This document shows positions 1,466 through 49,898 of a stretch of 64,000 nt of DNA, piece by piece (position 1 is the stretch's first letter; every line of letters begins with the position of its first letter). Made by a program: the position numbers and the translations under genes. Source of the stretch: Patescibacteria group bacterium (GTDB taxonomy: Bacteria; Patescibacteriota; JAHJAL01); contig JBMORM010000009.1 of NCBI GenBank assembly GCA_049322675.1, positions 92,995 through 156,994 on the forward strand. The letters are read 5' to 3'. The notes below the pieces were generated by a model. It saw only the letters and a list, made by a program, of their open reading frames with translations, ran no database searches and was not told the origin of the DNA.

Positions 1466-1473
1466 AGATTGTA

Positions 1474-1682: not shown

Positions 1683-1689
1683 TCGTCGA

Positions 1690-2595: not shown

Positions 2596-2600
2596 CGAAT

Positions 2601-2978: not shown

Positions 2979-2993
2979 AGATACTCCAAAATA

Positions 2994-3581: not shown

Positions 3582-3702
3582 AAAAATTTTCCAGTTAAAG
3601 ATACTTGATTATATTTTAACTTTTTTCTGAAATAAATTAAAGCTGGCCGACGTATTAATAAGTGATACAATACAAAAAGATAACGATATCTACTCATTTT
3701 TT

Positions 3703-4296: not shown

Positions 4297-5059
4297 ATAT
4301 ATGAACACAAAAATCAGCGACAAGGTGTTGGAAAAAATAAAGGACGACAAAATAAAACCGATTCCTAGATGGTGGTATGTGTTGAAAAATACTTTGATCT
4401 GGTTGTTGTTGATTGTCCTATTGCTTTTGGGGGCGGCCATGACCAGTCTGTCTTTGGGAGATATTATCGATGGTGATTGGGATATTCGGCCAATGATGGG
4501 AGTTCATCTTTTGACATTTATTTTTATGACTTTTCCCTTTACCTGGGTAGCGTTGGGTTTAGTCATTATCTTTTTGGCTTATTATGATTTTAAATACTTA
4601 CCAAAGAGTTATAAAATCGGTGGGCAAAAATATTTGATCATAATCATTTCGATAGTTTTGGCTTCAGGATTGGGTATGTACTATATCGGCGGCCATAATC
4701 CCGTCAAAAGGTTACTGAGCAACTTTGCCCCGGTTAATGATTGGGAAAAGCAGAAAGATATGCGATGGATGAATCCCGGTCAAGGTTTATTGGCTGGTAA
4801 AATTGTCGAGGTAAACAACGAGGACTCTTTTGTGCTTCAAGATATTTTATTGAATCAGCAATGGACGATTGACATTTCGCAAGCAAAAATTGCCGAAAGC
4901 GTGAATATTGCGAAGGATGAGAAAATAAAAATGATCGGTGAAATGAAAGAGGGAAATAATTTTGTCGCTAAAGACGTACGGCCTTGGCAAAAGGGAAAAG
5001 ATAAATTTCTTCCCCCTCCCCCACCCCCGATTTTTGATGACGAAAAGCCAAAGAATTAA
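4289..5059 (+). CDS. Membrane protein, possible anti-sigma factor partner (polyproline C-terminus)
   Basis: 256 aa. It overlaps the sigma factor gene by ATGA, has several predicted TM helices and carries a PPPPPPPIFDDEK tail. Assignment as an anti-sigma factor is by position only. Confidence 0.35.
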   Translation: MSKYMNTKISDKVLEKIKDDKIKPIPRWWYVLKNTLIWLLLIVLLLLGAAMTSLSLGDIIDGDWDIRPMMGVHLLTFIFMTFPFTWVALGLVIIFLAYYDFKYLPKSYKIGGQKYLIIIISIVLASGLGMYYIGGHNPVKRLLSNFAPVNDWEKQKDMRWMNPGQGLLAGKIVEVNNEDSFVLQDILLNQQWTIDISQAKIAESVNIAKDEKIKMIGEMKEGNNFVAKDVRPWQKGKDKFLPPPPPPIFDDEKPKN

Positions 5060-5109
5060 TTGCAATAAAAATATTTGTAAAAGAGTTATCTACTAAAGTA
5101 AATAACATA

Positions 5110-5146
5110 AAAAAAACCATCGTGATTGCACGATGGTTTTTTTATT
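5110..5146. terminator. Bidirectional rho-independent terminator between convergent genes
   Basis: aaaaaaaCCATCGTGattgCACGATGGttttttttt: a 10-bp stem and 4-nt loop, flanked by an A-run and a T-run. Confidence 0.7.
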
Positions 5147-5172
5147 TAGACTGCGGGATGTCTTTGGGTATG

Positions 5173-14100: not shown

Positions 14101-16626
14101 ATCACCGTTGGGATCGATGAATCCGGGAAAAACCGTCCAATTGATCCCGTCGTTGTCTTTGTCAAAATCATCGCCGTTGAGAATACCGTCATTATCCAAA
14201 TCGTTGTCCGCGTCAGGAGTTGTAGTCGCACCATATGCGGGATCCTCAATATCGACAATACTATTATTGTTTAAGTCTCGGGTGCGATAGTTGGCGCGAT
14301 CGATAAAACCATCCAAATCACTATCATTGCGACATTGATCATTGTCAACACAAGTAGCTTCACAGCTAGACAATTCAATGTCGGAATAGCCGGGCGAGGT
14401 GGGATAGCGGAAGAAATCAGTTGAGATTTCTTGCAGCCTTAGGTCCCAGTCGTAGGGTTTTGCCCAGTTGTCATATACATCATCGCCAGTCAAGTCATAC
14501 CAGACAGCAGTAATATTTTCCCAAATATTTTTGGTTGGCCCCAAAGGTAGTTCATCGCGAGTAAGGTAATAGCGCTGGGCATCGGTAACTTTGTCCCAAT
14601 TTAGTTTGACTATTGGTTTTTGTCCCTGACATTTGGTAGAGGCCTGGATAGAAAATTCGGGAGCGGAAAAATCAGGATTATTGATCACTACTTTTCTTTC
14701 ATTTGGCTGATTATTGTATTCATTCTCCTCTTCCAAATTGATTGATGACGGATCAGTAGTTAAACCGCCAGTTTTGATTCGAAATGGCAAATCAAAATTG
14801 CCGGTATAACTGTAATACGGACCAAAATTTAAGGGGGTGGCGCCAGCCGGTTGATACGACATCGAGAGAGTAACTTTGGTTTGAATACGATGAAAAGGGT
14901 GAGATAGATCATTTTCCGCAAACGAAGCAGTAAAGGTAGAATTGGAAAGGTAGTCATCGAGAGTAGTTTGATTGGGATTGATAACCGTATCGCCCAAAGA
15001 AATATTTTTCAGTTGGTTGTTGCTATCGGTATAGCCGTAATCCAAATCGGTGCGAAAGGCGTCATCCAACCAAGCTTGAATATCAGTTTGAGCGGAGTGG
15101 TTGACACAGTTGAGATCCTGGACAGCGATCGAGAGATTAATAGAATCATTTTGATCGTATATGCCTTGGTCGAGGTTGAAGTTGTAGGCAAAATCACCAA
15201 TCACTTCCCCGCCGTATGTAGTTTGAACATAATATGTTTTGGCTTCCGCTGCCTGTTGATAAAAAACAAACAAGCCACCAAACCCGATAATCGCCCAAAG
15301 AGTCAATTTACTTAGTTGCGAATATCGCTTTTTGACGATTAGCCAGCCGATTAAGCAAATGACAATCAAAACCAGAAAATAAATGATGTAATCCAAGATT
15401 TTAGCTTTAGCAAATTTGTCCGGTGATTTGGCTGGTTGTTTATATTGATATTCCAAGGTGGAAAGGATTTTATTGTTGTCCAGAGTTTGGTTGGCGACAA
15501 TCTCGGACTTAATAATTGGTTCAACGCACTTGGAAGATAAGGAAACAGGGAAACTAAATATTTTATTTAGATTGTTTTCGAGTTTCTTTTGATAGTTTTC
15601 GCTACAAGCATGACCATCTTTTTGATCGATAATAATTAATGATAGAGTTGCGTCGGACAATTGACTTGGGATACCTAGACGATTATTGATTACTCGATCG
15701 GCCGAGTCAGACCAAAAAACGCGAGCAACCGTCGTCTCGTCTGCTTCAAAAATCGCTTTGTCCAAACTAACATTTTGAATAGTAGCGGATGGACCAGCGA
15801 TGACAAAATGAATCGGAACTATTCCGCCGATTACCTCCGATTGATTGGTAGATACGATCAATTTTGCTTCATAGGCTTGTGGAGAAAGATCATTGATTGG
15901 GGGTAAATTCCAACTGACTTCTCGGCTTTCGCTGGGCTTAAGAGTGACCGGTTGATCAAGTGAAGATGCATTTACTTTTTCACCGGCCAAAGAGCGATAA
16001 TAAACGGAAAAATCGGGATCAATGTTTAAGTTTTGGTTAATCGGGTTTTTGAGTTGGCAGATAATTTGCAAAGATTCTTCTCTTTTAACAACCACACCCT
16101 CACTGACTGAATATTTTTGGGAAGAATTATTGTTTTCACCTTCAATTGCGAGATGACAGGATTTTTCGCTAATATTCAAGGTTAATTTTTTTTCGGGCAA
16201 ATCGATCGTCCCAGCTTTAATATTACCCAAAGGAAGAGAATTGCTGTTGACGGCTATCACCCAAACATCGATTTTTCCCTGTACATAAGTTGGCAATTTG
16301 TAGGTGATTTTTGTCGATTTGTATTCGTCGGGATTCAACGACAGTTTTTGGCCACTCATCCATTGATCGATTATCTTTTCACTTCCTTCTTGGTTTTTCA
16401 TAATCTTGATTCCGAGCCGTATGTCACCTTGCAATTGATTTCCGTTTTGCAACCCAAAATTTATTTCCAATTGTTGATTACGGTTATTTTGTACTGATGC
16501 ATCCACAATATCCATGTCGGCTACCAAGGTGGTCTGCCAGTCGGTATTATTGGCGGCAAAGACCGGTGCAGGGACAAGAAAGAAAAGACAAATAATGATT
16601 GGTTGTATTTTTTGGAATAGAGTCAT
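5173..16626 (-). CDS. Giant (3,817 aa) secreted/membrane-anchored multidomain protein with about 10 CUB-like domains, thrombospondin-type-3-like calcium-binding repeats, Fn3-like and LamG-like modules
   Basis: The ORF is uninterrupted. It begins with a signal peptide (MTLFQKIQPIIICLFFLVPAPVFA). It contains repeated ~110-aa units matching the CUB consensus but lacking the canonical cysteines: SPNYPxxY..W.I....I.L.F..F..E...D...I.DG....GS....IKVHFVSD.S..GF.I..Y. A tract of about 250 aa carries DNDGIPD/DxDxDGxxD repeats. A LamG/ConA-like segment is present (...YLGRTGWGTDQYAQGKYDYLRVYDRALSKDEI). The C-terminal region holds two tandem ~150-aa repeats (TDGSLKITFAPQF.. / TDGSLKVALDPEF..). Confidence 0.75.
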   Translation of the reverse strand: MTLFQKIQPIIICLFFLVPAPVFAANNTDWQTTLVADMDIVDASVQNNRNQQLEINFGLQNGNQLQGDIRLGIKIMKNQEGSEKIIDQWMSGQKLSLNPDEYKSTKITYKLPTYVQGKIDVWVIAVNSNSLPLGNIKAGTIDLPEKKLTLNISEKSCHLAIEGENNNSSQKYSVSEGVVVKREESLQIICQLKNPINQNLNIDPDFSVYYRSLAGEKVNASSLDQPVTLKPSESREVSWNLPPINDLSPQAYEAKLIVSTNQSEVIGGIVPIHFVIAGPSATIQNVSLDKAIFEADETTVARVFWSDSADRVINNRLGIPSQLSDATLSLIIIDQKDGHACSENYQKKLENNLNKIFSFPVSLSSKCVEPIIKSEIVANQTLDNNKILSTLEYQYKQPAKSPDKFAKAKILDYIIYFLVLIVICLIGWLIVKKRYSQLSKLTLWAIIGFGGLFVFYQQAAEAKTYYVQTTYGGEVIGDFAYNFNLDQGIYDQNDSINLSIAVQDLNCVNHSAQTDIQAWLDDAFRTDLDYGYTDSNNQLKNISLGDTVINPNQTTLDDYLSNSTFTASFAENDLSHPFHRIQTKVTLSMSYQPAGATPLNFGPYYSYTGNFDLPFRIKTGGLTTDPSSINLEEENEYNNQPNERKVVINNPDFSAPEFSIQASTKCQGQKPIVKLNWDKVTDAQRYYLTRDELPLGPTKNIWENITAVWYDLTGDDVYDNWAKPYDWDLRLQEISTDFFRYPTSPGYSDIELSSCEATCVDNDQCRNDSDLDGFIDRANYRTRDLNNNSIVDIEDPAYGATTTPDADNDLDNDGILNGDDFDKDNDGINWTVFPGFIDPNGDLDSDSVPNYQEQDVDNDGIPNTFDADNNANGTPDNLEIDQDDDNDGIADWQDVDQDNDGTPNIDDEDSGGGASDPDDDLDDNGRKNYLDYDIDADTFNNNKDLNDDNDGIPDYLDVDDDNDGIADADEIDYDFDLDNDSESNSWDLDLDGDGINNTDDTDSDNDSWADDIDPDDNNDGIADCAATYRVYAHMPVYTYDLNLASETDQTTTYDLDLLFWPSGETLQKHYQFPHYSVPSVDKVTVPLYCNSDLFAYQPVIELSYVIDCESATPSIKLNWTQLQNIESTYIFKDDFGSVSRQILSPVSVDDNELLDMNIDSGNSYSYKVQIKLLNGDIIESEYQIANIQCRPKNPVNLTVSGGCPSCNSSTGTVNISWTQNSNSPTQQTQVEWSTSGSTTIPEKISNTTGLLAQWNFNDALSGTNITTAFNNDGSCGGDCNAILRNMTVASTTGLDGSSSEGWSSDAIYKSSVQTDGVDDYLVVGEEATTNTHSYGTNTNTEQSIGLQTNNLSNQEVVFEWQTFSLSDSGGTNYLESSPNYPSDYDSDLSLENYQIWHPDARMIRVHFDDFVTEEGVDQFNYAGFATDGYSLSGNLGSSFSPAISGDVFNYSFYTDSDNNYKGWLIDYYQASQAPSSSRYPSQYNENQDQWYEIYEPNATEMRVHFADFETEEGYDFVEILDGNDNVQETYSGDLGAFYSEWVGGDRIKVHFVSDGSANFAGFLIDKYEYGRSIRSDNYPQDYLDSTDRWWEINHPGATRIRLNFSDFATEETQDFVELLDKNDNVITTYSGDLGSFTSDWVPGDLVKIHFVADGSNTARGFRISSYDSQQGLSSPNYPDDYEVNDPIYIDGLNVASPNYPANYNDNDDTWQEINPGSNTARIRVHFSVIDIEEGVDYIDLYDAEDNLLRTYNGNTTDEWSDFYDTNQIKVHFVSNDSNTGPGFLIDSYEKIDFTDNGMVWQEKNTTVNSPNYPSYYPANTDQWWEFEDANADGYQLHFSRFNLDGSDSLEIYDGDDNLLTSLNGELGSFWTDLYSGIPKLKIRLLTDGDTNQSGFKIDKYRYYAPKIWTINSVGADYLNLHFADFDVNDDPSCDYVQVLDTSNNVVGTYRGWNMPSFDVVVGGETAKIRMLRQCGGGRGWLLNSYNVLNQQGIYSSNYPYNYDSNTDQTQTITQPGANNISLHFSVFNTFDENDYLQILDNSDNLLAEYSGNLGSFDTPYFLTDTIKLKFITNDSDNDTGWQIDSYRYQTGGGAIMQDIENNDQVTIETMAKIDQMAGGYFPIFARDNFWQFGLDENQGLVFGSESDHTSCAYTPLLHNWQQYAVSYDRSNNQIDFYIDGQTVCSGPADIDLSNTGLMPIYLGRTGWGTDQYAQGKYDYLRVYDRALSKDEIRDIYENNNNTYNWNSEPIDISSPNYPYIWPNSDNTYDWTIQKAGASQIQIHFDEFKWDYDQCGYYEFSSGVGNYPQDRLQIMDASDNVLHTCNVDGCPNVYTVNGDTVKLRLTSVAYIKHEATSYPDNANTANCRLFDEALARRFKIDYYRWTQDSSGWQTINTTNSNSVTWTPPKATLGGQTIYFRAKTCDGQNCAPNYIYATQSFGPCGRPDGLEINPNPVSMMNLGSSAPVTTYVTCGDEYYLDNTGKKYNVPNYFFTGSGGLGNITFDSNLLSCRSNISVGNSNDIRSASSSIVLTDNSGYFFGTNSEEIDLSSPNYPDLVTGWNAGDSVSYTINKPGATRMRVYFDYYVLWPDNVKVNGVDQSTHDGFAPFYSNIVNGSTINITFNATVDREGYFGFHINRVEWDDANSAEGMPPCSGTMTATVNNFEGYGALSGTADVNVLNDNLTLSGNWDCSEYDALYNRQAGKVNLSWNAIEGASGYVVLIPQYDSSYESYYAFSYVDDQLSYSVDLLDSVNRKYIVWAVDDQWRPLATSNIVTVSGTCPTGDNTISYAFADCSDTSNPKVNIVVPGRDTGSSSPLWLEKFSGTTSTWEQDLTTTVMSPNYPAASPTNVTQTWIYTKPGAAEVRAHISASRLAYGASVEFYDKNDNLIGGAWDDICYSMTAPGDTIKVVYNFTTTFPYYSEYEGSWIYYSSPVYFAIDRFESRVDTGMGYYQRQANEYQTIIDENVIDGQTYTYAPKIGGYESTTSYFLENRRYKEIYSYNPATITVNCSTMPAAPTNLSVNDTCPACGIRVITPHLSWDTVTGASRYKAQYYYRYKHWVDYDLATPGFPAETTGDTQIDWEISHPGAYAIELDLTSVQNAHEVYDYQYYQGVIFVDKEGYVVDSLARDLEYVIGSEAYQSYYHKLTLPIEGDTVYIQGDLDMGAGPAIFKIDGYYYYDYNPVGGEPAWIDIGTTTDTNIDAEIDVYKANGHQINYRVFSIDADDNYGTPATLTQTFTCSIPQSITYNPASMTLNNNGDTLAYQSLARCSLGETITIDESLNNLQETLSSGLNTCSTGTTINNKRIVSGSNASNCSGSLSGVTTKPFTFSSYRWPYPLNGQAPVQILGSFSPTDTNTDSTLNDAIVSPQVSSPTRHILRYDIRQSQIITDGSLKITFAPQFNLVGLNSSDIGITGGDVIWSSAIVNTIENTIVIPFSGSLDSSDDAVEISLGETNFINNPADLGDYPVYLTSHTSTDGSGDNVDYASDTISIIDASLNDVLSDSIAEEYSKHTIHYNITGDTDITDGSLKVALDPEFDFSSVTSTDIIVNGGGVDWGTPTVDTDQNTVVLPFTGTLVGGSNGLITIVIGNDHLVQNPANIDSYLVLLFGYESTDGSGDPVMMHQTRVAITGGVMVTASIPSLLTFTVSGVEADQSVNGSLTTIPTTNTSINFGVLEPNSSKVAAHDLLVEQNAADGFVVTVQQSHTLSSNNDTINNYSGSNTNPIEWTEPTEGQKGYWGYTTNDSMLSNGVQNRFISNKWAGLAAAPAEVMYHHGPTSGTNDINGQARVGYQIEITDLQSAGFYQTEIIYICTATY

Positions 16627-20441: not shown

Positions 20442-20900
20442 TTACCAGGGGCCGCAGATTGGATCCTGGTGGTTTTGGTGTTCGACAATACGGCGAAGAT
20501 GCCCCGGAGATATATTTTCGGGTAGATTCGTTAGAGAGAAAAAGCGATATTCGATTATTTCTTTCGGATCAATTTTCACAAGGGACTGATCCACTTGGTC
20601 TTCGGATCGAAAAAAGATAATATGATCGCGCTTGCCTTCGATTTGCGATTTGTACAAACCAAACAATCAAACGTTTTTAAGAGATATATTTAGTTCCTCG
20701 CGTAATTCACGTTTGATAGCCGTGGAAAAATCCTCCTGATATTCTACCGCGCCGCCGGGCAACATCCAATCTGGTAAATAGGTATGTCGCACAAGCAATA
20801 TTTTTCCGTCGTTTATCAAAATGATTCGCACACCAAAAGTAACCGGCCTAAAGATGAGCCAGTAGAGACGCGCTATTGGATAGAGAAAGCGATATAACAT
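20442..20900 (-). pseudogene. NUDIX hydrolase interrupted by an in-frame TGA (stop at 20667-20669)
   Basis: The 77-aa ORF carries a full Nudix box (GGAVEYQEDFSTAIKRELREELNI). The 74-aa ORF continues in the same frame directly after the TGA. Combined length is about 152 aa, typical for a NUDIX protein. Confidence 0.55.
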
Positions 20901-20915
20901 TAGTTTGAAAATAAT

Positions 20916-20998
20916 GCGGTCGGGGAGACTTGAACTCCCACGGGTTGCCCCACATGCACCTCAAGCATGCGCGTATACCAAATTCCGCCACGACCGCT
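20916..20998 (-). tRNA. tRNA-Leu (anticodon GAG), no encoded CCA
   Basis: Reverse complement is GCGGTCGTGGCGGAATTTGGTATACGCGCATGCTTGAGGTGCATGTGGGGCAACCCGTGGGAGTTCAAGTCTCCCCGACCGCA. It has a long variable arm, the anticodon loop TTGAGGT and a T-loop GTTCAAGTC. Confidence 0.85.
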
Positions 20999-21235
20999 CG
21001 TCGGAGTCGTTCTTAACGTTTCGTGCGAGCCAGACATACTGTCTCCCACTTCACTTCCAGAACGCCTCCTCCTCTACAAAAAAATTTCTGCGACAATTTT
21101 TTTGTTAAGATACATTCGGGAATACGATCCTATCGTTTCGTGCGAGCCAAAACGTTTTGGATGGGTGAGCGCGAGACCTGCCCGTACAGTAAAGGATCGG
21201 TTCTTTTTCCCGAAAATTTCTTTGATAATTTTTAC
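20999..21235 (-). repeat. Two tandem units (about 105 and 130 nt) of a conserved tRNA 5'-leader element
   Basis: Minus-strand unit B (20999-21104) reads aaaaaattgtcgcagaaatttttttgtagaggaggaggcgttctggaagtgaag...ggctcgcacgaaacgttaagaacgactccgacgagcg and joins directly to the tRNA. Unit A (21105-21235) repeats the aaaattatcaaagaaattttcggg...ggctcgcacgaaacgataggatcgtattcc architecture. Homologous copies lie at 26716-26818 and 23420-23563. Confidence 0.6.
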
Positions 21236-21308
21236 GAAAAGCTAAATGTTAAATTTTCAGTAGTTACTTTTAAATATAATTTCTGTTCCCAGGAGTATGC
21301 AAGATTTT

Positions 21309-23030
21309 TTATTTTTGCTTCCATTCTCGTTTGGTGTTGATATACCAATCACTTATTCCCAAAAATCTTTCGGCGGGATTGGAAGCTTGTTGAACATTAA
21401 CGCCCATAACCGCTTTGTTGACAGCATAAATGTAGTAAGGCCGGTACAAAAAAACGGCCGGTTTTTCGTCATAGATGGCAACTTGCATGGGTAGATAGCT
21501 ATGAATACGACTGTCCGGATCATTGGTCCGACGAGCAGTTTCAATGTAACGATCAACTTCAACGTTGGAATAGTTGGAGAGGTTCAAACCGGGATCTGCA
21601 GTCTGGCTGGAATGCCAATATACGTACGGATCGGGATCACTGCCCAAATTTTCGCCGAAGAGAAGAGCATCGTAGTTTCGAGGTTTGATAAATTGATTCT
21701 CCAGATCACCGATATTATACACTCCTATTTCTAGATCTATACCAATATTTTTCCAATTGGTTTGAACCATTTTGGCAGCGCGGATAAAATCAGGCGAGTC
21801 AGAAGTAACCAAGGTAAATTTCAAGCGAGTATTATCTTTTTCCCTGATACCGTCGCCATCAATATCGCTCCATTTACCTTTTTCAAGAATACTTTTGGCT
21901 TTTTCAACATCATAAGGCAAATTTGGTATCTCGGGATTGTTTCCAAGAAAACCTTCCAAGATTGGCGTGTTGATAATTTTGCCTTTATCGAAAAGAACTT
22001 CTTTAAGAATCAGCTCTCGATCAAGTCCATAGTACAGGGCTTCTTTGACGTAGGGATCTCGAAGCAACGGCTTGGAATTTTGGTTGATGAAAATCGCGGT
22101 ATATTGAGGTAGGGAAATATCATAAAAATTGGCGGTCGTAGCTTGGCTTGAAACATATTGCCAGTCCATCGTCAAAACATGCCCGATACTGATTATTTCT
22201 TTTTTTTGATAGGCAGTATAAACATCCTGATAATTTTCGTAAAATTTAAAAATCAGCGTATCAAGATAAGGTTCGCGACCATGATATTTGGAAAATTTTT
22301 CCAATTCAATTGAGTTATACACTCCTTTTTTGTCCACCAAAATTTTTTTTACTTTAAAGGGACCACTACCAATCGGCTCATAGTTGTAATCAGTGTCCGG
22401 TAATTGGGAGGGGTCGATTTTGGCAAAAATATGTTCGGGAATAACTCCAGTTGTCAAATTGGTAAGAAAAGGCGAAAAGACTTCGGGCAAAGTGAATTTT
22501 ATTGTTTTGTCATCAATTTTTTCTATAGTTACGTCCCGCCAATTGTCCTTGAGTGTACCGGGGTACTTTTCATTTTGAATAAGTTGATAGGTAAAAACAA
22601 CATCTGCAGCTGTTAAAGGTTGTTCGTCGTGCCAAAAGAGATTATCTTTCAGATGGACAGTGTAGGACTTACCGTCTTCAGAAATTTCCCATTTATCTGC
22701 CAAGTCTCCGATCAATTGATGATTATTGTCGTAGGTCAACAAGCCGGAGAAGATGATCTGGACCAGATCCCGATCGATATCGTTGGTTTGAGATAAAATC
22801 GGGTTGATCATGGCCGGTTGGCCGGCCAATCCTTCGATCAATGTTCCACCCTTGGCTGCAATCACCGTGGTTTGGCCGGTATAGTATCTGCTGCCAAAAT
22901 ATCCTCCCAACAATAATATCAGGATAACTCCCAGAATTATTTTATTTGCATATATCCAATCAAAAACTTCTCGAAGATTTTTGGGCAAGACAAACCAGGA
23001 TGGCTTAAAACGTCGCCATGATTGATTCAT
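21309..23030 (-). CDS. ABC transporter substrate-binding protein, peptide/oligopeptide family 5, N-terminally anchored
   Basis: About 573 aa from the Met that begins MNQSWRRFKPSW. It has a TM anchor and SBP_bac_5-like motifs throughout (e.g., NYEPIGSGPFKVKK). Confidence 0.75.
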   Translation of the reverse strand: MNQSWRRFKPSWFVLPKNLREVFDWIYANKIILGVILILLLGGYFGSRYYTGQTTVIAAKGGTLIEGLAGQPAMINPILSQTNDIDRDLVQIIFSGLLTYDNNHQLIGDLADKWEISEDGKSYTVHLKDNLFWHDEQPLTAADVVFTYQLIQNEKYPGTLKDNWRDVTIEKIDDKTIKFTLPEVFSPFLTNLTTGVIPEHIFAKIDPSQLPDTDYNYEPIGSGPFKVKKILVDKKGVYNSIELEKFSKYHGREPYLDTLIFKFYENYQDVYTAYQKKEIISIGHVLTMDWQYVSSQATTANFYDISLPQYTAIFINQNSKPLLRDPYVKEALYYGLDRELILKEVLFDKGKIINTPILEGFLGNNPEIPNLPYDVEKAKSILEKGKWSDIDGDGIREKDNTRLKFTLVTSDSPDFIRAAKMVQTNWKNIGIDLEIGVYNIGDLENQFIKPRNYDALLFGENLGSDPDPYVYWHSSQTADPGLNLSNYSNVEVDRYIETARRTNDPDSRIHSYLPMQVAIYDEKPAVFLYRPYYIYAVNKAVMGVNVQQASNPAERFLGISDWYINTKREWKQK

Positions 23031-23038
23031 AGAAAAAG

Positions 23039-23254
23039 TTAGATAATAATATTGGCAATCGAAGCGGTAATAAAGAATACCGTCAGGACAATAGTTCCCC
23101 AATGTAGGAATTTTTCTAAACCTCTTTTGCTTTGGTAGATGTTACTTTCCCCGCCAAATACACCCCCCAAGGCTGAACCTTTGTGCTGCAGCAAAATAAA
23201 AACCACAATCAGGACGGAGATGACAATTTGCCCGTACATTATGTATTGTTGCAT
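23039..23254 (-). CDS. secG: Preprotein translocase subunit SecG
   Basis: 71 aa with two TM helices and the central LLQHKGSALGGVFGG motif. Confidence 0.7.
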   Translation of the reverse strand: MQQYIMYGQIVISVLIVVFILLQHKGSALGGVFGGESNIYQSKRGLEKFLHWGTIVLTVFFITASIANIII

Positions 23255-23348
23255 ATTTGTTTATTTAATAATGAATAATGAAGAGTGAATAATAACCTAT
23301 AATAAATATTTTATTATTAACTATTCATTTTTAATTATTAATTCAAAA

Positions 23349-23419
23349 AGGCGTGGACGGGATTCGCACCCGTGTACACGGTTTTGCAGACCGTTACCTA
23401 ACTCCTCGGTCACCACGCC
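23349..23419 (-). tRNA. tRNA-Cys (anticodon GCA), no encoded CCA
   Basis: Reverse complement is GGCGTGGTGACCGAGGAGTTAGGTAACGGTCTGCAAAACCGTGTACACGGGTGCGAATCCCGTCCACGCCT. The anticodon stem is ACGGT/ACCGT, the loop is CTGCAAA and the discriminator is U73 as expected for Cys. The D-arm is atypical. Confidence 0.7.
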
Positions 23420-23563
23420 TCGTCGGAACACGATCCTACCGCTACACGCAAGTCAAAAGTATTTGCCTTTCGTTTCGCTACCGGATCGGTTCCTCCTCTA
23501 CAAAAAAATTTCTACGACAATTTTTTTGTTAACATACATTCAGGAACACGATCCTATCGTTTA
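23420..23563 (-). repeat. tRNA 5'-leader element copy upstream of tRNA-Cys, plus the tail of a preceding unit
   Basis: The minus-strand reading is ...aaacgataggatcgtgttcc|tgaatgtatgttaacaaaaaaattgtcgtagaaatttttttgtagaggagga...gcgtgtagcggtaggatcgtgttccgacgag, then the tRNA. It shares the AAAAATTGTCG.AGAAATTTTT..GGAGGA core and the ggatcgt.ttcc unit end. Confidence 0.55.
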
Positions 23564-23681
23564 GAGATAGAAAATAAATTCTAGTTTATATGATTGGACT
23601 AATAATAATCATATCTATTATTGATCGATTTTGCAACTTTGATAAAAAAGGCTAATATTTATTTAAGGTAAAAATATTTTT

Positions 23682-24290
23682 ATGCAAATTTTTTTGACGT
23701 ATCACTGGCAGTTGATTTTGCAAGTGATTGGTATTTTGATTCTTTTGTTGATTATATATATAAACTTTTTCAGTCGGAAAACTCCGGCTTGGTTGGCAGA
23801 TCTGGTCAATTACCTAAACTTTCGCAATGAAGACAATATTGAACGATGGCTAATCTACTCAAAATATTTCAAGAATCACCGCGTAAAATGGTTGGAGGGA
23901 TACTGTGGAAAACGTGAAAACAAGGAGATATTTTTTGGTCTATTTGAGATGGATAATCAACTATTTTTTTGTTCAATTGTGAAAGCGGAAGTCAAGCCAA
24001 TGATTTTAACAAACAAATTGGACGAAAAATATGATTGGGATTTTTCCGAAAATATTATTATCAATAATACTTCCTACAACTTGTTTGCTAGCGAAAAATA
24101 TTTATCTACTAATATTAAAAAGTCGGGGAATTTTCAATTGATGCTGGGAGAAATATTCAAGGGGAAAATTAGTGTTTTGGAATTTACAGAACTAAATCAG
24201 GTTATTTTAATTTCAGATCGGCTATTTGAGACCAGCAAGGAAGGGATTGAATTTTTTTCAACATTTATTCATCTAAAAGACGAGTTATAA
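23682..24290 (+). CDS. Hypothetical membrane-anchored protein
   Basis: 202 aa with an N-terminal TM (LILQVIGILILLLIIYINFF). It ends 8 nt before pcrA. Confidence 0.4.
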   Translation: MQIFLTYHWQLILQVIGILILLLIIYINFFSRKTPAWLADLVNYLNFRNEDNIERWLIYSKYFKNHRVKWLEGYCGKRENKEIFFGLFEMDNQLFFCSIVKAEVKPMILTNKLDEKYDWDFSENIIINNTSYNLFASEKYLSTNIKKSGNFQLMLGEIFKGKISVLEFTELNQVILISDRLFETSKEGIEFFSTFIHLKDEL

Positions 24291-24297
24291 TTTTGCC

Positions 24298-26526
24298 ATG
24301 AAAAATGACATTGTTTCTGGTTTAAACGACAAACAAAAAGAAGCGGTTTTGTGCGCTGACGGCCCACTTTTAATTTTGGCGGGCGCCGGGAGCGGAAAAA
24401 CCAAGACTTTGACGCATCGCATTGCTCATATTGTCAAAGAAAAAAAGATAAGCCCTTATAATATTTTGGCGGTAACTTTTACCAATAAAGCTGCCAAGGA
24501 AATGAAGTCTAGGATTTCTAAGTTATTGAAATTGTCAGACAATTTTGGTTCTTTTGAGACAAACCTACCTTGGATGGGGACATTTCATTCAATTTGCGTG
24601 CGGATTTTGAGAGAACATGCCGGTAAACTTGGTTACAAAAATTCTTTTGCCATCTACGATAGCGACGACCAATTGACGGCGGTAAAAAAGGTAATGAAGG
24701 AACATCATATCGATCCAAAACAATATCATCCTCAGGCTATCAGATCGCATATTTCCGGCGCAAAAAATGAATTGATTGACGCCAAACATTATCAGGAAAT
24801 GGCCCATATCAATGATTTTAGTTCCATGGTTTCTTTGGTGTATCTCGATTATCAAAAATTACTAAAGGACAACAATGCGATGGATTTTGATGATTTGATT
24901 ATGAACACAGTGATGTTATTGGAAAAATATCCGGAAATCCGGCGGGATTATCAGGAGAAGTTTCAGTATATTTTAATTGATGAATATCAAGACACCAATC
25001 AGGCTCAATATACTCTGGTAATGCTTTTAACCAATCAAAAAAATAATATTTGCGTCGTCGGAGACGACGCACAATCTATTTACTCATGGCGAGGAGCGAC
25101 GATACGAAATATCCTGGAATTTGAAAAAGATTTCAAAAATACCAAAGTCATAAAATTGGAGCAGAACTATCGATCGACTAAAAATATTTTGGCTGCGGCC
25201 GATCAGGTAATCGCCAAAAATTCCGGGCAAAAAAAGAAGAAATTGTGGACGGAAAATCCCCAAGGAGAAAAGCTGACTATTTACCAAGCGCAAAATGAAT
25301 TGGACGAAGCCCGATTTGTGGCGGAAGAGATTTTGAAGAATAAGGATAACAATGAATTGGATTTGAAAGACTTTGCGATTTTGTATCGCACCAATGCTCA
25401 ATCACGCACAATTGAAGAAATGCTACTTAAATACAATATTCATTACCGAATCGTCGGTGGTCTGAAATTTTACGAAAGAAAAGAAATAAAAGATGTGCTG
25501 GCGTATTTGAAAGTTATCGTAAATCCAACCGACATCTTGAGTCTGAGCAGAATTATCAACACGCCTCCGCGCGGGATTACCAAAAACACTATCAACAGTT
25601 TGGAAGTAATTGCCAGAGAGTATTCGATGAACATCTGGGAAGTGATTTCAAAAATAGCCAATGACAATAATGGCATCAGAGAATTGGCGGAAAATCATAT
25701 TAATGCTCGGGCGATAAAGAACCTGATCGGCTTTTTTAATTTTATTTCCGAATGGCAAGGGAAAATGACAAAAAATAATCCTTCGGAATTTTTGGTTGAG
25801 ATAATAAACAAAAGTGGTTATCGGGACTGGCTCAATGACAAATCGATCGAGGGTGAAACCAGATTAGAAAACTTGCAAGAGTTGCTGACAGTTTTGGAAA
25901 AATACAACAATTTTGAAGCCGAGGAAGGTATTCGTTTATTTTTGGAAGAAGTCGCTTTGATTACAGATATTGACAATTTTGACGAAAACGAAAATGTGGT
26001 TACTTTGATGACTTTGCATAGTGCCAAGGGTTTGGAATTTCCGGTGGTGTTTATGGTAGGTATGGAAGAAAATTTATTTCCTCATGCTCGTTCGATCATG
26101 GAGGCGGCAGAAATGGAAGAGGAAAGACGTTTGTGTTATGTAGGCATCACTAGAGCGAAAAAGTTTTTATACTTAACCTATGCTCAGCTACGCAATATTT
26201 TTGGTAACACCCAAATCAATCCTCCTTCCAGATTTTTGGCGGACATTCCGGGAGAATTAATCAAGGAAGTGGGGCAAAGGAAAAAATCAGGTATTTTGAA
26301 AAATCCGGCACTTGGAGTCAGACCAAATAAAATGGGGCAAAAAATAATTCTTGACGAGGACTGGGGTATTTTTAAGTCCGGGGATGTAGTGACACATCCC
26401 AAATTCGGTCGAGGCAGAATCGTTCAAATTCAGGGAGGTATTATCAAAGTCGGATTTGAAAGTGGTGGTATTAAGAGTCTGGCAGCCGCTATCGCCCCAT
26501 TGAAAAAAATCGACAACGACGAATAA
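24298..26526 (+). CDS. pcrA: ATP-dependent DNA helicase PcrA/UvrD
   Basis: 742 aa. Walker A is AGAGSGKTKTLTHRIAHIV, with helicase motifs DEYQDTNQAQY and VGDDAQSIYSWRGA. The C-terminal region is UvrD-like. Confidence 0.85.
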   Translation: MKNDIVSGLNDKQKEAVLCADGPLLILAGAGSGKTKTLTHRIAHIVKEKKISPYNILAVTFTNKAAKEMKSRISKLLKLSDNFGSFETNLPWMGTFHSICVRILREHAGKLGYKNSFAIYDSDDQLTAVKKVMKEHHIDPKQYHPQAIRSHISGAKNELIDAKHYQEMAHINDFSSMVSLVYLDYQKLLKDNNAMDFDDLIMNTVMLLEKYPEIRRDYQEKFQYILIDEYQDTNQAQYTLVMLLTNQKNNICVVGDDAQSIYSWRGATIRNILEFEKDFKNTKVIKLEQNYRSTKNILAAADQVIAKNSGQKKKKLWTENPQGEKLTIYQAQNELDEARFVAEEILKNKDNNELDLKDFAILYRTNAQSRTIEEMLLKYNIHYRIVGGLKFYERKEIKDVLAYLKVIVNPTDILSLSRIINTPPRGITKNTINSLEVIAREYSMNIWEVISKIANDNNGIRELAENHINARAIKNLIGFFNFISEWQGKMTKNNPSEFLVEIINKSGYRDWLNDKSIEGETRLENLQELLTVLEKYNNFEAEEGIRLFLEEVALITDIDNFDENENVVTLMTLHSAKGLEFPVVFMVGMEENLFPHARSIMEAAEMEEERRLCYVGITRAKKFLYLTYAQLRNIFGNTQINPPSRFLADIPGELIKEVGQRKKSGILKNPALGVRPNKMGQKIILDEDWGIFKSGDVVTHPKFGRGRIVQIQGGIIKVGFESGGIKSLAAAIAPLKKIDNDE

Positions 26527-26580
26527 TAATTTGATTGAAATATTCTTTGATGATAAGATTAAAAATGTATTTTGTTCGCG

Positions 26581-26665
26581 AATTTCCAATTTCCAGTTCT
26601 TCCCTCACGGGACCGAACTACTGCTGGCAATTTCCAAAAAATTTCCAATGATCAATTTTCAATGA
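26581..26665. repeat. Copy of GGAAATTGGAAA/TTTCCAATTTCC short repeat family
   Basis: aatttccaatttccag...gcaatttccaaaaaatttccaatgatcaattttcaatg. The reverse complement shares about 36 nt with the copy at 1690-1760. Confidence 0.5.
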
Positions 26666-26715
26666 AAAGTTCGTTTTTGAAATTTTAAATTATGAATCTG
26701 GTATTTAAGTCTCCC

Positions 26716-26818
26716 AAAAATTGTCGAAGAAATTTTTGGGAAAAGGAGGAGGCGTTCTGGTAGTGAAGCATGAGACGGTATTCCGGCTCATGTGAAACGA
26801 TAAGAACGACTCCGACGC
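26716..26818 (+). repeat. Conserved tRNA 5'-leader element (clearest copy), immediately upstream of tRNA-Val
   Basis: caaaaattgtcgaagaaatttttgggaaaaggaggaggcgttctggtagtgaagcatgagacggtattccggctcatgtgaaacgataagaacgactccgacgcgg. The 24-nt block GGAGGAGGCGTTCTGG.AGTGAAG and the GAAACG.TAAGAACGACTCCGACG block are identical or near-identical to the tRNA-Leu(GAG) copy. Confidence 0.6.
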
Positions 26819-26892
26819 GGGCGGTTAGCTCAGCTGGTTAGAGCGCTTGCCTTACACGCAGGAGGCCAAAGGTTCGATCCCTTTACCGCCCA
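26819..26892 (+). tRNA. tRNA-Val (anticodon TAC), no encoded CCA
   Basis: GGGCGGTTAGCTCAGCTGGTTAGAGCGCTTGCCTTACACGCAGGAGGCCAAAGGTTCGATCCCTTTACCGCCCA: a canonical cloverleaf with the anticodon loop CTTACAC. Confidence 0.85.
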
Positions 26893-26912
26893 TTGAAAAA
26901 AGGAGAGTAAAT

Positions 26913-27542
26913 TTGATAATTAAAAAAAGAGACAACTTTTTTGTCATTGCCGTTTTTTTGTTGTTGTTTTTTGCAGTGTGGTTTTTTATTAGGACCATGA
27001 TTGGTTCTGCTGTTGATACAAAAATTTCGACGGCGATTTTTGATTTTGGTCATAGTGATTTTCTGACCATATTTTTCTTGTTTATCACAAATTATACTTT
27101 GGGAGAAATAGCTGGGGTTTTTGCGGTAATGATTTATGGCGCTTTTTGCAAGGATAAATTTTTCTTGATTATTTCGAGCCTTGTTTCTTTATTAATTTTG
27201 GCAGCCGATTGGTTTCTAAAAAATATTTTTGTTCGTCCCAGACCATTTGTTACCTTGCCTGAAGTAGAAAATATTTCTGATTATATTTTACGTGATTATT
27301 CATTTCCTAGCGGACATACGGTATTCGCTTTTTTTATCGCTTACATCCTAACCCATCGTTTTCAATTTGTCGGGATAAAAAAGTATTCAATATATTTCTT
27401 GGCGATTTTGGTTGGTTTTTCCAGGATATATCTGGGAGTTCACTACTTTGGAGATGTTCTTGCCGGAGCTATACTGGGATCATTGTTTGGAATTATAACA
27501 ATGTTGATTATGAATAAATACCCTCGAACTATTTTGAAATAA
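26913..27542 (+). CDS. PAP2-family (phosphatidic acid phosphatase type 2 / undecaprenyl-PP phosphatase-like) membrane protein
   Basis: PAP2 motifs are FVRPRPF, SFPSGHT and SRIYLGVHYFGDVLAG. I chose the TTG start at 26913, which has an AGGAGA Shine-Dalgarno 6 nt upstream, because the upstream ATG at 26847 overlaps tRNA-Val. Confidence 0.65.
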   Translation: MIIKKRDNFFVIAVFLLLFFAVWFFIRTMIGSAVDTKISTAIFDFGHSDFLTIFFLFITNYTLGEIAGVFAVMIYGAFCKDKFFLIISSLVSLLILAADWFLKNIFVRPRPFVTLPEVENISDYILRDYSFPSGHTVFAFFIAYILTHRFQFVGIKKYSIYFLAILVGFSRIYLGVHYFGDVLAGAILGSLFGIITMLIMNKYPRTILK

Positions 27543-29966: not shown

Positions 29967-29989
29967 AAAAAATTTATAATTTTCAATTT

Positions 29990-30120
29990 AAAATTTACAT
30001 TAAATTTCCAATTTCCAATGATCAATTTCCAAAGAAGGCTCAATTTCCAAACAGATTGTATTCATTGAAAATTGAAAATTAGACATTTTTTGGAAATTGG
30101 AAACTGGAAATTGGAAATCT
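29990..30120. repeat. Inverted pair of GGAAATTGGAAA-family repeats in the spacer between the ABC ATPase and permease genes
   Basis: aatttccaatttccaatgatcaatttccaaag ... cattgaaaattgaaaattagacattttttggaaattggaaactggaaattggaaatc. The two halves are in opposite orientation and can form a long imperfect hairpin. Confidence 0.5.
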
Positions 30121-31042
30121 ATTTCGTGAGTTCGTGGAATATGTCTTCCATGCTGTTTTCTTTGAAAGTTATTTCGAGCAAATCAAAGCCGCGGCCGATA
30201 ACTGCTTTATTGATTTCTGAACGCAAATCGGTGTCGGATTCAATGATAAAAAGATGGATGCCGTGTTGTTTACTTGCTTCTTTTTTGATATTACCGGCAC
30301 CGGGAATTTTTTTGATAGTAGAAATAATATCGTCTGCATCGCCTTTAATTGTGACCAGAATCTGATACGCTGATGCTTGGCCTCTTTTTATATCAGCAAG
30401 GCTACCGTCAGCGACCAAATGACCGTCTTTTATTAGTATGACTCGATCGCAGATGGCCTCAACTTCTTGCATGATGTGCGTGGATAAAATAATGGTCTTT
30501 TCTTTACTGAGAGAGGCGATCAATTCGCGGATTTCAATAATTTGGTTAGGATCAAGACCGGTGGTCGGTTCGTCCAGAATCAAAACTTGGGGATCATGAA
30601 TCAAGGCACAGGCCAAAGCCACTCGTTGTTTGTATCCCTTGGAAAGTTCAGATATATCTTGAAAAGTTTTTTCTTTTAAACCACAGGATTTGATTACTTT
30701 TTGGATGGCGCGTTTTTTGTCATTGCCGGTCAACCCATGAATTTCGGCAGCAAATTCCAATTGTTCATAAACTGACAGCTCAAAGTATAAAGAAGCAGAC
30801 TCCGGAAGGTAACCAATCATATTTTGGGCTGGTATCAGATCGGTAGTCACGTCGAAATCACCCACTTTGACTTGACCGGCGGTTGGCTTCAAAAATCCGG
30901 TAATAATACGCATGGCTGTCGTTTTGCCCGCGCCATTTGGTCCCAACAGTCCGACAATTTCTCCTTTGTTGATAGAAAAATTTACTTCTTTCAGAGCGGT
31001 ATGTGATCCGTATTTTTTGACAAGGTTATTTACTTCAATCAT
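30119..31042 (-). CDS. ABC transporter ATP-binding protein (GldA-like, ABC-2 type)
   Basis: Walker A is LLGPNGAGKTT, with signature LSKGYKQRVALA and Walker B ILILDEPTTGLD. The likely start is MIEVNNL at 31042. Confidence 0.8.
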   Translation of the reverse strand: MIEVNNLVKKYGSHTALKEVNFSINKGEIVGLLGPNGAGKTTAMRIITGFLKPTAGQVKVGDFDVTTDLIPAQNMIGYLPESASLYFELSVYEQLEFAAEIHGLTGNDKKRAIQKVIKSCGLKEKTFQDISELSKGYKQRVALACALIHDPQVLILDEPTTGLDPNQIIEIRELIASLSKEKTIILSTHIMQEVEAICDRVILIKDGHLVADGSLADIKRGQASAYQILVTIKGDADDIISTIKKIPGAGNIKKEASKQHGIHLFIIESDTDLRSEINKAVIGRGFDLLEITFKENSMEDIFHELTK

Positions 31043-35281: not shown

Positions 35282-36193
35282 TTAAATGGCATTCGCACCA
35301 GCAACTATTTCTGCTAGTTCTTGAGTTATTGCTGCTTGTCTGGCTTGGTTGTAAGCCAGATTAAGACTATCGATCATGTCGGTAGCCGATTTGTGAGCAT
35401 TTTTCATAGCCAGCATGCGGGCGGAATGTTCGGAAGCGTCGGACTCTAGTACGGCTTGATAGATTTGGAGTTCTAATATTCGAGGCAGGATTTGGTCTAA
35501 GACCAATTTCGGGGAGGGCTCATACCGGTAGTCAATTTTCAATTTCCAATTTTCAATTTTCAAAATATCAGATTTATCATTAGAGACGACTCCGATTTCT
35601 GAATCCGGGCGGGTTTTTAGGGGTAATAATTTTTTAATGATTGGTTGCTGTTTTAGAGTTGAAACAAAGTCGGTATAGACTAGATAAACGGCTTGATATT
35701 GTTTTTGAACAAAACCGTCTAATAATAATTTGGAGATTGGTGAAATAGTTGAGATTTCGTTCAATAAATCAGGTTTGTCAAAATCGGCAGCAATATCGTA
35801 CTTTAGGCGACGAAGTTGGTCACGAACTTTGCGTCCGAAAGTAAGAAAAGTATGATTGATATTTTTCTGTGAAAGTTCTTTACTGCAGGATATACACTTT
35901 TTTAATACATTGCCATTGAAAGCACCGCACAATCCCCTATTTGATGAAACAACTAGGATAGCGGCGTGTTTTATTTTTTTCGGATTTTTAAGCAAGGGAT
36001 GAATATATTTTGGATTGGAAAGAGATATTTTTTCGATTATATTCCAGGCCAAGTTTGAATAATTTCTGGACAAGACAACTTGACTTACCGCTTTGCGCAT
36101 CTTGGAAGCTGCCACTAGCTCCATGGCTTTGGTAATTTTTTTAGTATTTTGGATTGATTTAATCCGATGTTTTATTTCTTTACTTTGGGACAT
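35282..36193 (-). CDS. atpG: F0F1 ATP synthase subunit gamma
   Basis: 303 aa with conserved N- and C-terminal helices (..LAMKNAHKSATDMIDSLNLAYNQARQAAITQELAEIV). Confidence 0.85.
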   Translation of the reverse strand: MSQSKEIKHRIKSIQNTKKITKAMELVAASKMRKAVSQVVLSRNYSNLAWNIIEKISLSNPKYIHPLLKNPKKIKHAAILVVSSNRGLCGAFNGNVLKKCISCSKELSQKNINHTFLTFGRKVRDQLRRLKYDIAADFDKPDLLNEISTISPISKLLLDGFVQKQYQAVYLVYTDFVSTLKQQPIIKKLLPLKTRPDSEIGVVSNDKSDILKIENWKLKIDYRYEPSPKLVLDQILPRILELQIYQAVLESDASEHSARMLAMKNAHKSATDMIDSLNLAYNQARQAAITQELAEIVAGANAI

Positions 36194-37726: not shown

Positions 37727-37843
37727 ACAAAAGATTTAATTTTTAATTTCTAATTTAAAATTTTCAATCATTTAAGAAAATTGCCGATTGCAATATTTAA
37801 GAGTTGATTGAAAATCATAAATCATAAATTGAAAACAAAAAAA

Positions 37844-49700: not shown

Positions 49701-49898
49701 ATGCCTAAATTAAAGACACATCGTGGTTACAAAAAGCGATTGACGCGAACTGGCACAGGCAAGTTAACCAGAAAACATGCCGGCGAATGTCATTTTTTGG
49801 AGAAAAGAAGTGCCAAGAGAAAGAGAAAGTTGGCTGTAGCAAATACTATCCATCCGACCGCACTAAAAAGAATCAAAAAGACGGTTGTTTATTTGTAG
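49701..49898 (+). CDS. rpmI: 50S ribosomal protein L35
   Basis: MPKLKTHRGYKKRLTRTGTGKLTRKHAG... I chose the internal Met of the longer ORF. Confidence 0.85.
   Translation: MPKLKTHRGYKKRLTRTGTGKLTRKHAGECHFLEKRSAKRKRKLAVANTIHPTALKRIKKTVVYL

Follow-up and report, generated by a model that had tools for sequence, protein, structure and literature searches.

The 64,000-nucleotide (nt) DNA stretch analysed here, referred to as the window, is part of contig JBMORM010000009.1 of a Patescibacteria group bacterium (GCA_049322675.1) and represents a chromosome segment of ~38% GC with uniform GC skew that carries housekeeping genes (PcrA, ATP synthase, IF3, GreA, PriA, SBP_bac_5 transporter protein). 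Five tRNA genes were called by ARAGORN and Rfam, and three of them, encoding tRNA-Val, tRNA-Leu-GAG and tRNA-Cys, are each directly preceded by a homologous module of ~108 nt (Table 1). A first-pass annotation of the sequence had already proposed this homology, and we find it to be real. The core box AAAAATTGTCGNAGAAATTTTT is present exactly at 26716-26737 (+), 21101-21080 (-) and 23525-23504 (-), compared to a chance expectation of 0.06 matches, and a copy with three mismatches lies at 21233-21212 (-). Similarly, the 24-nt block and the GAAACG.TAAGAACGACTCCGACG block common to the Val and Leu copies were recovered, as were all other quoted blocks at their places. The tail box described at tRNA 5' ends holds for Leu-GAG and Cys, which read GACGA-G (hyphen at the tRNA border), but had been quoted one base off for Val, which reads GACGC-G, while the tRNA-Gly gene has only TCTCGACGA. 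CCA is not encoded by any tRNA gene whose 3' end was read (the five of the window and those of L029 and L041, two loci in another genome).

Table 1. Positions of tRNA genes, module units, remnants and promoters in the window
Feature	Position	Strand	Details and basis
P0 hairpin, Val unit	26712-26741	+	5' arm 26712-26722, loop GTCGAAGA 26723-26730, 3' arm 26731-26741; RNAalifold, folds
AAA linker, rod and tail, Val unit	26742-26818	+	Sequence, folds, alignments
Proximal type A unit before tRNA-Leu-GAG	20999-21107	-	cmsearch 121.9 bits; sequence
Distal type B unit 5' of the Leu unit	21114-21239	-	cmsearch 31.1 bits; fold
Proximal type A unit before tRNA-Cys	23421-23531	-	cmsearch 122.2 bits; sequence; A23420 given as position -1
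3' remnant of older unit, then spacer	23528-23563	-	Remnant TAAACGATAGGATCGTGTTCCTGA (23563-23540), last ~24 nt; spacer ATGTATGTTAAC; sequence
Tail-only remnant directly 5' of tRNA-Gly-CCC	1683-1691	-	TCTCGACGA; sequence
tRNA-Val (TAC)	26819-26892	+	CCA not encoded; ARAGORN, Rfam
tRNA-Leu (GAG)	20915-20997	-	ARAGORN, Rfam
tRNA-Cys (GCA)	23348-23420	-	ARAGORN, Rfam
tRNA-Leu-CAG and tRNA-Gly-CCC	1381-1683	-	ARAGORN, Rfam
Sigma-70-like promoter of Cys locus	23608-23636	-	TTGCAA-17-TATGAT; upstream of entire Cys leader; promoter scan
Probable promoter region of Val locus	26677-26707	+	TTGAAA-19 nt-TATTTA; sequence; orthologous to TTGAAA-17-TAGAAT in element-free L146

Architecture and covariation of the module

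The module consists of an A/U-rich hairpin (P0), a linker of three purines and an irregular rod of ~30 bp, together spanning about 105-110 nt. The 11-bp stem of P0, rich in A and U, carries a loop of 8 nt, GUCGNAGA. Because loop variants keep C3, G7 and A8 while positions 4-6 vary, the apex is probably a C-G pair closing a triloop, which would account for the free N; the loop of the Val copy probably comprises a bulged G, a U-A pair, a C-G pair and a GNA triloop. The outer pairs of P0 covary through six different sequences (CCC/GGG, ACA/TGT, GTG/CAC, GCA/TGC, CAT/ATG and TCG/CGA). At the base of the rod, a G-C pair and tandem G.A/A.G mismatches join the linker GGA to the tail GAC, followed by P1 (4-5 bp, a mismatch or bulge, and 6 bp) and a 4x4 loop with G.A at its ends and two middle positions that covary like Watson-Crick pairs. 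Beyond this loop lie 2 bp, a 3x3 GNA/GNA loop and the variable hairpin P2 with a conserved A.G or G.A mismatch, and the rod stops one or two unpaired nucleotides short of tRNA position +1.

In the Val unit, the rod starts with G26745-C26816 and the tandem G.A/A.G (26746-47 with 26814-15), continues through P1a (GGAG/CTCC), a G.A mismatch, P1b (CGTTCT/AGAACG), the 4x4 loop GGTA/GATA, 2 bp, the 3x3 loop GAA/GAA and the variable P2, and leaves G26817 and C26818 unpaired immediately before the tRNA. The proximal Leu-GAG unit combines P0 outer pairs ACA/TGT with a rod of the Val type and has A20998 at tRNA position -1, whereas the Cys unit has a P1 of a different type (GGAACCGATCC/GGATCGTGTTCC). 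The sequence GGAGGCGTTCT pairs with AGAACGACTCC, and the Cys copy carries compensatory changes there (CGATCC/GGATCG and GGAA/TTCC). Since the linker GGA pairs with the tail GAC, a pairing seen in 18-22 of the 23 copies described below, the GGAGGA and GACG boxes together make up a single helix end, and GGAGGA is not the separate box that it had first seemed to be.

This architecture is supported by several lines of evidence. Compared to shuffled sequences, each copy in the window folds with z scores of -3 to -5.6, and five members from other lineages adopt the same fold (z -3.6 to -7.4). Alignment of 10 distinct copies with MAFFT and folding with RNAalifold, which the first-pass annotation had suggested, gave two hairpins with compensatory double changes in 15 of 31 pairs and almost no broken pairs. 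We built a covariance model from this alignment. In a model-fitted alignment of 23 copies from at least 10 assemblies, 96.5% of the pair cells are standard pairs (34-51% in slid controls), double changes affect 24 of 32 pairs and the covariation score reaches 0.59 (at most 0.11 in slid controls), with the limit that alignments fitted to a covariance model inflate pairing. Given that the independent RNAalifold result with 10 copies and the slid controls agree, we regard the structure as real. In addition, the P0 stem is 11 bp long in eight true members compared to at most 9 bp in chance pattern matches, and G-U pairs and conserved purine-purine mismatches occur only on the tRNA-sense strand. 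The covariation of the outer stem pairs further argues that the core box is a folded single strand and not a sigma-70 promoter or a protein operator. The module is clearly under structural selection.

Several other interpretations of the sequence were considered and rejected. Cross-pairing between leader and tRNA is not apparent, as each folds on its own and 2 nt lie between the end of the rod and the acceptor stem. A pseudoknot between GUCG of the P0 loop and CGAC of the tail would be complementary in most copies, but both sides are invariant and it would compete with the rod base. For known 3D motifs (K-turn, bulged-G/loop E motif, 11-nt receptor and hammerhead core), comparison by eye gave registers that misfit the rod or are not kept between copies. 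Finally, a small open reading frame (ORF) behind GGAGGA starts with GTG in two copies, lacks a start codon at Cys and in L029 extends into the tRNA, and its substitutions are of the compensatory RNA type.

Distribution, tRNA junctions and turnover

Pattern scans and the covariance-model search that the first-pass annotation had proposed revealed members in other genomes, which excludes recent local duplication as the sole cause of the similarity between the window copies; recombination among copies is nevertheless clearly part of the biology of this element. The 23 copies come from three related Patescibacteria, a Saccharibacterium, and metagenome-assembled genomes (MAGs) of Christensenellaceae and other Clostridia, a distribution that is a lower bound; species-representative genomes were scanned by pattern. 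Among the matches listed, at least three copies belong to the Patescibacteria MAG DAIRGB01 (L029, L030 and L041), and a metagenome scan added copies on four contigs of the MAG JAEAMF01 (GCA_016294905.1) and on two activated-sludge contigs as well as a cut-off copy at the end of another metagenome contig (L139). With the covariance model, we further found a variant with a long P0 in relatives of 62-65% PcrA identity (L146 and L149), tandem upstream units at several loci, and five clear members in other lineages among the remaining pattern-selected genome loci. These are L015 from a Christensenellaceae MAG (before tRNA-Glu), L075 from a Saccharibacterium (before tRNA-Ile-UAU), L094 from a Clostridia MAG (ending at the 3' end of a convergent tRNA), and L077 and L049 from Christensenellaceae MAGs.

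In the window itself, the only other match of the model scores 10.5 bits (E = 5.3) at 49766-49859, besides weaker opposite-strand echoes of the Leu copies. Across ~1.4 Mb of cellular loci, copies of at least ~30 bits lie only in tRNA leaders, at other borders of stable-RNA genes (L030, L094 and L077) or in L049. The model had no match in 816 kb of pattern-selected viral DNA, and BLAST of two single copies, one against a phage and one against a plasmid collection, found none either. Several contigs end within or next to copies (L139, L138, L145 and L290), so that the repeat breaks metagenome assemblies. The family in other genomes, the hairpin nature of the core box, the pairing of GGAGGCGTTCT with AGAACGACTCC, the distal Leu unit and the Cys remnant had all gone unnoticed in the first-pass annotation.

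Sense copies precede tRNAs for Val, Cys, Gly, Lys, initiator Met, Glu and Ile and four Leu isoacceptors, and the spacing from GACG to tRNA +1 is exactly 1 nt in 11 of 14 of them. Most copies directly adjoin a stable-RNA gene, and their orientation tracks the tRNA and not the replication strand, with one copy on the plus strand and two on the minus strand of the window under uniform GC skew. However, intact copies without a sense tRNA also exist (L030 with 113.8 bits, L094, L077, L049 and internal array units), which suggests that the RNA matters by itself. In both L030 and L094, the end of the element meets the 3' end of an intact convergent tRNA, and in L149 an array of two and a half tandem units (15750-16079) converges on a tRNA-Val whose 3' acceptor strand is replaced by the array end. 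This tRNA-Val is still called by ARAGORN but has an acceptor stem with three G-U pairs and a mismatch, and it is probably a pseudogene made by rearrangement.

In L077 and L058, the element lies ~70 nt downstream of a 5S rRNA gene, and the L077 copy is flanked on both sides by ~70-nt direct repeats (128-200 and 311-377) that each hold the last 10 nt of 5S rRNA, a terminator and the GTGGTGGAAnGCGA motif. A spo0A gene is found 1.1 kb downstream (1417-2190); its vicinity to a P0 loop sequence TGTCGAA, which we take to be the Spo0A-box consensus, is probably a coincidence. In L049, the element is followed by ~100 nt matching nothing and then a terminator, and in the region 1499-5515 a resolvase-domain ORF is convergent on the copy, with a Fic/DOC gene nearby. 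Behind the leader-bearing tRNA-Ile(UAU) of L075 (region 180-2867), three convergent serine-recombinase genes, of which the first encodes 507 aa in an ORF overlapping the tRNA 3' end, look like a mobile element integrated at the tRNA, and a LOOT RNA lies further along this contig (7321-7440).

The Leu and Cys loci of the window carry additional upstream copies or remnants. The distal type B unit of the Leu locus keeps P0 and P1 but has an extra hairpin in place of the 5' half of the rod and ends in ..TCCCGAATGTATCTTAAC instead of GACGA and a tRNA; its homologues are found in L120, L133 and L136. The remnant upstream of the Cys unit recurs directly on tRNA-Cys in a related MAG (L145). While tRNA-Gly of the window has only the tail and no hairpins, its ortholog in the related MAG (L136) has a full leader of one type B and one type A unit.

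Turnover is also evident from the occupancy of orthologous genes. In the window, the Val, Leu-GAG and Cys genes carry the element and Gly has only the tail; in JAEAMF01, it precedes Val, Lys, Gly and initiator Met, with only a remnant at Cys and a fused type B piece at Leu-GAG; and a relative with 65% PcrA identity (L146) has it solely at Leu-GAG, its tRNA-Val gene being served by a plain TTGAAA-17-TAGAAT promoter and a 35-nt leader. Even strains of 97% and 92% PcrA identity, whose flanks and tRNAs at Val and Cys are essentially identical to those of the window, have different modules: The Val locus of L151 differs by an additional partial P0, a spacer and another rod, and the Cys locus of L152 shows another P0 loop and a solitary P0 where the window has the remnant. 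The family is multicopy and occurs in tandem arrays with diverged or shortened upstream units, and array junctions repeat the element's own 3' end (..TCC(C/T)GA-ATGTAT.. versus ..TCCGA-CGA-tRNA, with the first hyphen at the junction). Since flanks match while modules differ, and since copies are mosaics of P0 types and rod types, the family evolves by frequent recombination among its copies, which exchanges modules between tRNA loci.

Other repeats and genes of the window are noted here in their own right. In the minus-strand spacer between the tRNA-Gly and tRNA-Leu-CAG genes, ~58 nt are enclosed by the two arms (1474-1498 and 1557-1581) of a perfect A/U-rich inverted repeat of 25 bp, and the Gly-Leu spacer of the related MAG (L136, 3694-3881) has a similarly long inverted repeat of other sequence, so that the architecture is conserved and the sequence is not. 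On the same strand, ~370 nt 5' of this operon, lies a gene for an NYN-domain (PIN-like nuclease) protein (2050-2595, -). The one Logan contig recovered by exact protein matching is short, reaching 156 nt past the NYN gene and stopping before the tRNA-Gly region. Upstream of the Val leader, a ~58-nt element (..TTCCCTCACGGGACCGAACTACTGCTGGCAATTTCC.., 26577-26634, +) with AATTTCC repeats on its flanks has similar sequences at 1943-1975 (-) and in L041 (~800-850, -) and is cleanly missing in L151 (97% PcrA identity); it looks like a second small insertion/deletion element. Runs of heptamer-like AATTTCC/GGAAATT repeats are found in many intergenic regions (1315-1378, 1703-1761, 26628-26685, 29967-30121, 35529-35568 and 37738-37772), often as inverted pairs on either side of the tRNA-Gly/Leu operon. 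A giant ORF of 3817 aa (5173-16626, -) with precomputed CUB and Laminin_G_3 matches contains internal repeats with periods of 39 and 189 nt at ~13558-14196 as well as a pair of repeats (11663-12042).

Transcription and proposed release of the leader

The promoter of the Cys locus lies upstream of the entire leader, and its -10 hexamer TATGAT is kept in all four relatives examined (L145, L146, L149 and L152) while the -35 hexamer TTGCAA is kept in the two closest ones (L145 and L152). The primary Cys transcript would start ~70 nt upstream of P0. For Val, the candidate promoter has a non-canonical spacing of 19 nt and was not called by the promoter scan, and the region that it shares with the element-free ortholog stops just before the element. 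With promoters upstream of the element, it is almost certainly transcribed together with the tRNA. This fits the earlier suggestion of a processed leader or small RNA co-transcribed with tRNAs, given that the element lies between promoter and tRNA and that its structure is strand-specific. The promoter and terminator scans found no -10 element at proper spacing downstream of TTGTCG in the core box and no terminator between element and tRNA. A promoter on the reverse strand, with TCGACA of the P0 loop and TACATT or TATAAA downstream, was rejected due to inconsistent spacing and because it would serve no gene at two of the three window loci.

We favor, with a probability of roughly 45%, that the module is a modular structured RNA in transcribed tRNA 5' leaders that would be released by RNase P as a small RNA of its own. 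Its transcription would start at the tRNA promoter or at another promoter immediately 5' of P0, and RNase P, an enzyme whose RNA is carried in diverged forms by bacteria of the candidate phyla radiation (CPR) (PMC8172020), would free it by cutting at tRNA +1. Two properties expected of an RNA released in this way are seen here, a structured RNA directly at the tRNA 5' end and a 3' end sequestered in a helix. Since the freed RNA would start at or close to a hairpin and end in a helix with an overhang of ~2 nt, it should withstand nucleases that depend on either end and persist as a small RNA. The P0 apex, the purine linker and the G.A-rich internal loops may form a surface for a common partner, most likely a protein, and recombination would carry the family from one tRNA leader to another. 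That the RNA matters in its own right, probably by binding a protein, is suggested by intact orphan copies, by the internal units of arrays and by the conservation of loops and mismatches. Going further, it is possible, though on the doubtful side, that these modules constitute an undescribed class of bacterial small RNAs whose 3' ends are formed by tRNA genes and RNase P, which spread semi-autonomously from leader to leader and across phyla and which have a protein-binding surface of their own.

A number of observations weigh against this proposal. Release and stability are predictions from the anatomy of the leader, and the partner protein is a postulate. P0 is not always 5'-terminal, given the start of the Cys transcript. 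The sequence of P0 is near-identical across phyla, which fits horizontal spread better than an ancient function, and ordinary recombination by itself would not easily yield the precise 1-nt junction. Finally, tRNA-Val and tRNA-Cys of L146 and tRNA-Gly of the window do without a full element; since orthologous tRNAs manage without it, its function would be dispensable at any given locus, which would also fit a selfish element.

The module could instead act purely in cis in the pre-tRNA, where it may protect the 5' end, offer the cleavage site to a diverged RNase P or adjust the rate of transcription or processing, and would simply be degraded after cleavage. RNase P protein of bacteria favors A at position -4, as studied in Bacillus, and the tail of the module places an A there. 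The exact junction with tRNA +1 in most copies, the independent folding of leader and tRNA around a 2-nt gap and the divergence of CPR RNase P RNAs (PMC8172020) point in the same direction. We still see this as rather unlikely, if a serious contender, in view of the structurally intact copies without a following sense tRNA (L030, L094, L077 and L049), the type B internal units that are kept across genomes though not adjacent to a tRNA, and the close relatives in which the same tRNA works without the element; moreover, the conservation of the loop sequence across phyla exceeds what a protective hairpin would need.

The turnover described above would also be expected of a selfish non-autonomous DNA repeat of the REP, miniature inverted-repeat transposable element (MITE) or PATE kind, whose hairpins, as single DNA strands, would be targets of a transposase or recombinase encoded at another place and which would insert at the borders of stable-RNA genes. 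Such a repeat would explain the multiple copies and the tandem arrays with decayed upstream units, the variable presence and module type between near-identical strains, the nearly constant P0 sequence across phyla, the array junctions that repeat the element's 3' end, the copies ending at the 3' end of convergent tRNAs (L030 and L094) or sitting between direct repeats with the 5S rRNA 3' end (L077), and the serine recombinase genes beside the L075 and L049 copies. With its C-G pair closing a GNA triloop, the apex of P0 also resembles a motif that we take to be unusually stable in DNA hairpins. However, the 64-kb window encodes no transposase, reverse transcriptase or integrase, the element has two unlike hairpins and no terminal inverted repeats, its orientation follows the tRNA and not the replication strand, and its G-U pairs and conserved G.A mismatches point to RNA more than to DNA. 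The exclusive association with tRNA borders goes beyond what a short DNA target would explain, and neither the pattern-selected viral contigs (covariance model) nor the phage and plasmid collections (BLAST of single copies) gave a match, and we judge this origin rather unlikely as well. Far less credible is the idea, close to the dedicated tRNA promoter first proposed for the core box, that the AT-rich palindrome is an UP element, a -35 region or a transcription factor site for the tRNA genes. The box is AT-rich and upstream of highly expressed genes, its TTGTCG resembles a -35 hexamer, weak promoter-like hexamers are nearby, and with N = A the P0 loop contains what is presumably the Spo0A-box consensus, TGTCGAA. 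Yet complementarity of the outer stem is kept through six different sequences, the -10 is missing at the proper distance, the Cys promoter lies upstream of the whole element, the rod would be left unexplained, and Spo0A is not expected in Patescibacteria.

Comparison with known RNAs and repeats

The impression of the first-pass annotation that the element is not a described one is borne out by Rfam 15, with which only the tRNAs score in the window, and by keyword and literal-sequence searches of the literature, which found no description of it. Permissive Rfam scans (E<=10) of window positions 20500-27500 and of L133, L146 and L049 gave no match on the element, and matches in related loci (5S rRNA, LOOT RNA and a glycine riboswitch) lie away from it. 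Among specific candidates, a T-box riboswitch was rejected because RF00230 has no match at E<=10, no terminator separates element and tRNA, and the downstream gene is a tRNA. A sigma-70 promoter or UP element is at odds with the covarying stem pairs and with the lack of a -10 downstream of TTGTCG. MITE or Correia-type elements do not fit since the ends, ..CCCAAAAATT and ..CTCCGACGA, are not inverted repeats and no consistent short flanking duplication is seen; REP/BIME elements or an IS200/IS605 PATE do not fit either, given the dissimilarity of P0 and rod, the absence of TnpA/RAYT from the window and the copies on both strands under uniform GC skew. An origin from the 16S rRNA 3' end (CCGTAGGGG, GGATC.C..CC) or from 5S rRNA loop E (GGTAGTG, GTGAAACG) was dismissed as local alignment scores are mostly within the range of shuffles; in the best case of Smith-Waterman comparison with the 16S 3' end and with Escherichia coli and Bacillus subtilis 5S rRNA, 16 of 500 shuffles reach the score, and the 5S covariance model has no match on the element. 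Self-cleaving ribozymes (hammerhead, twister, pistol, hatchet and HDV-like) have no Rfam match, and the rod is unbranched and lacks the hammerhead three-way junction with CUGANGA/GAAA.

The 5' leaders of bacterial tRNAs are usually regarded as short, unconserved and disposable, and we know of no conserved structured RNA described in them. Against this background, the leader reported here is common to unrelated tRNAs and distant phyla, structurally selected and subject to turnover between strains. If the released leader is stable, it would be a bacterial counterpart of noncoding RNAs with RNase P-defined ends such as MALAT1 and would add an abundant multicopy small RNA to the little-known RNA repertoire of CPR bacteria and gut Clostridia. 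If it is a mobile element instead, its precise homing to the borders of stable-RNA genes would introduce a targeting logic new to bacteria. In both cases, the covariance model offers a means of annotating such regions, at which assemblies break.

The closest parallels are found in different quarters. In MALAT1/MEN-beta and mascRNA, a structured RNA likewise lies directly 5' of a tRNA shape, RNase P makes its 3' end and a helix protects that end. These are, however, eukaryotic long noncoding RNAs with a triple helix and a tRNA-like decoy, whereas our element is bacterial, is ~110 nt long and precedes real functional tRNAs, its release by RNase P is a prediction, and we see no evidence of a triple helix in the module. 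Small RNAs from tRNA-precursor spacers, such as 3'ETS-leuZ of E. coli, similarly arise as by-products of tRNA-operon processing, persist and act in trans, but they are single-locus, lineage-restricted and base-pairing, in contrast to multicopy covarying modules across tRNAs and phyla. Like T-box Stem I, the module has a long irregular rod with purine-rich internal loops in a 5' leader tied to tRNA biology, but a specifier loop, a T-box sequence, a terminator/antiterminator and a downstream synthetase or amino-acid gene, which are all features of T-boxes, are lacking here. The boxB-boxA (nut-like) leaders of rRNA operons also combine a hairpin with a conserved linear motif in a stable-RNA leader, and two Clostridia copies lie just downstream of 5S rRNA genes; yet no boxA-like sequence is present, the linear motif of our element is purine-only and paired with the tail, and orphan or arrayed copies would be unexpected for a nut site.

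With REP/BIME, Correia/NEMIS and pneumococcal BOX/RUP elements, finally, the module has in common that it is multicopy, intergenic, hairpin-forming, modular or mosaic, strain-variable and co-transcribed with its neighbors. Those elements lie between protein genes and have terminal inverted repeats or REP palindromes (with the RAYT transposase in the case of REP), unlike the stable-RNA borders, 1-nt junction, orientation with the tRNA and two unlike hairpins seen here. The element belongs to none of the families tested, and by analogy its function may lie close to those of RNase P-defined RNA ends, spacer-derived small RNAs and small repeated structured elements.

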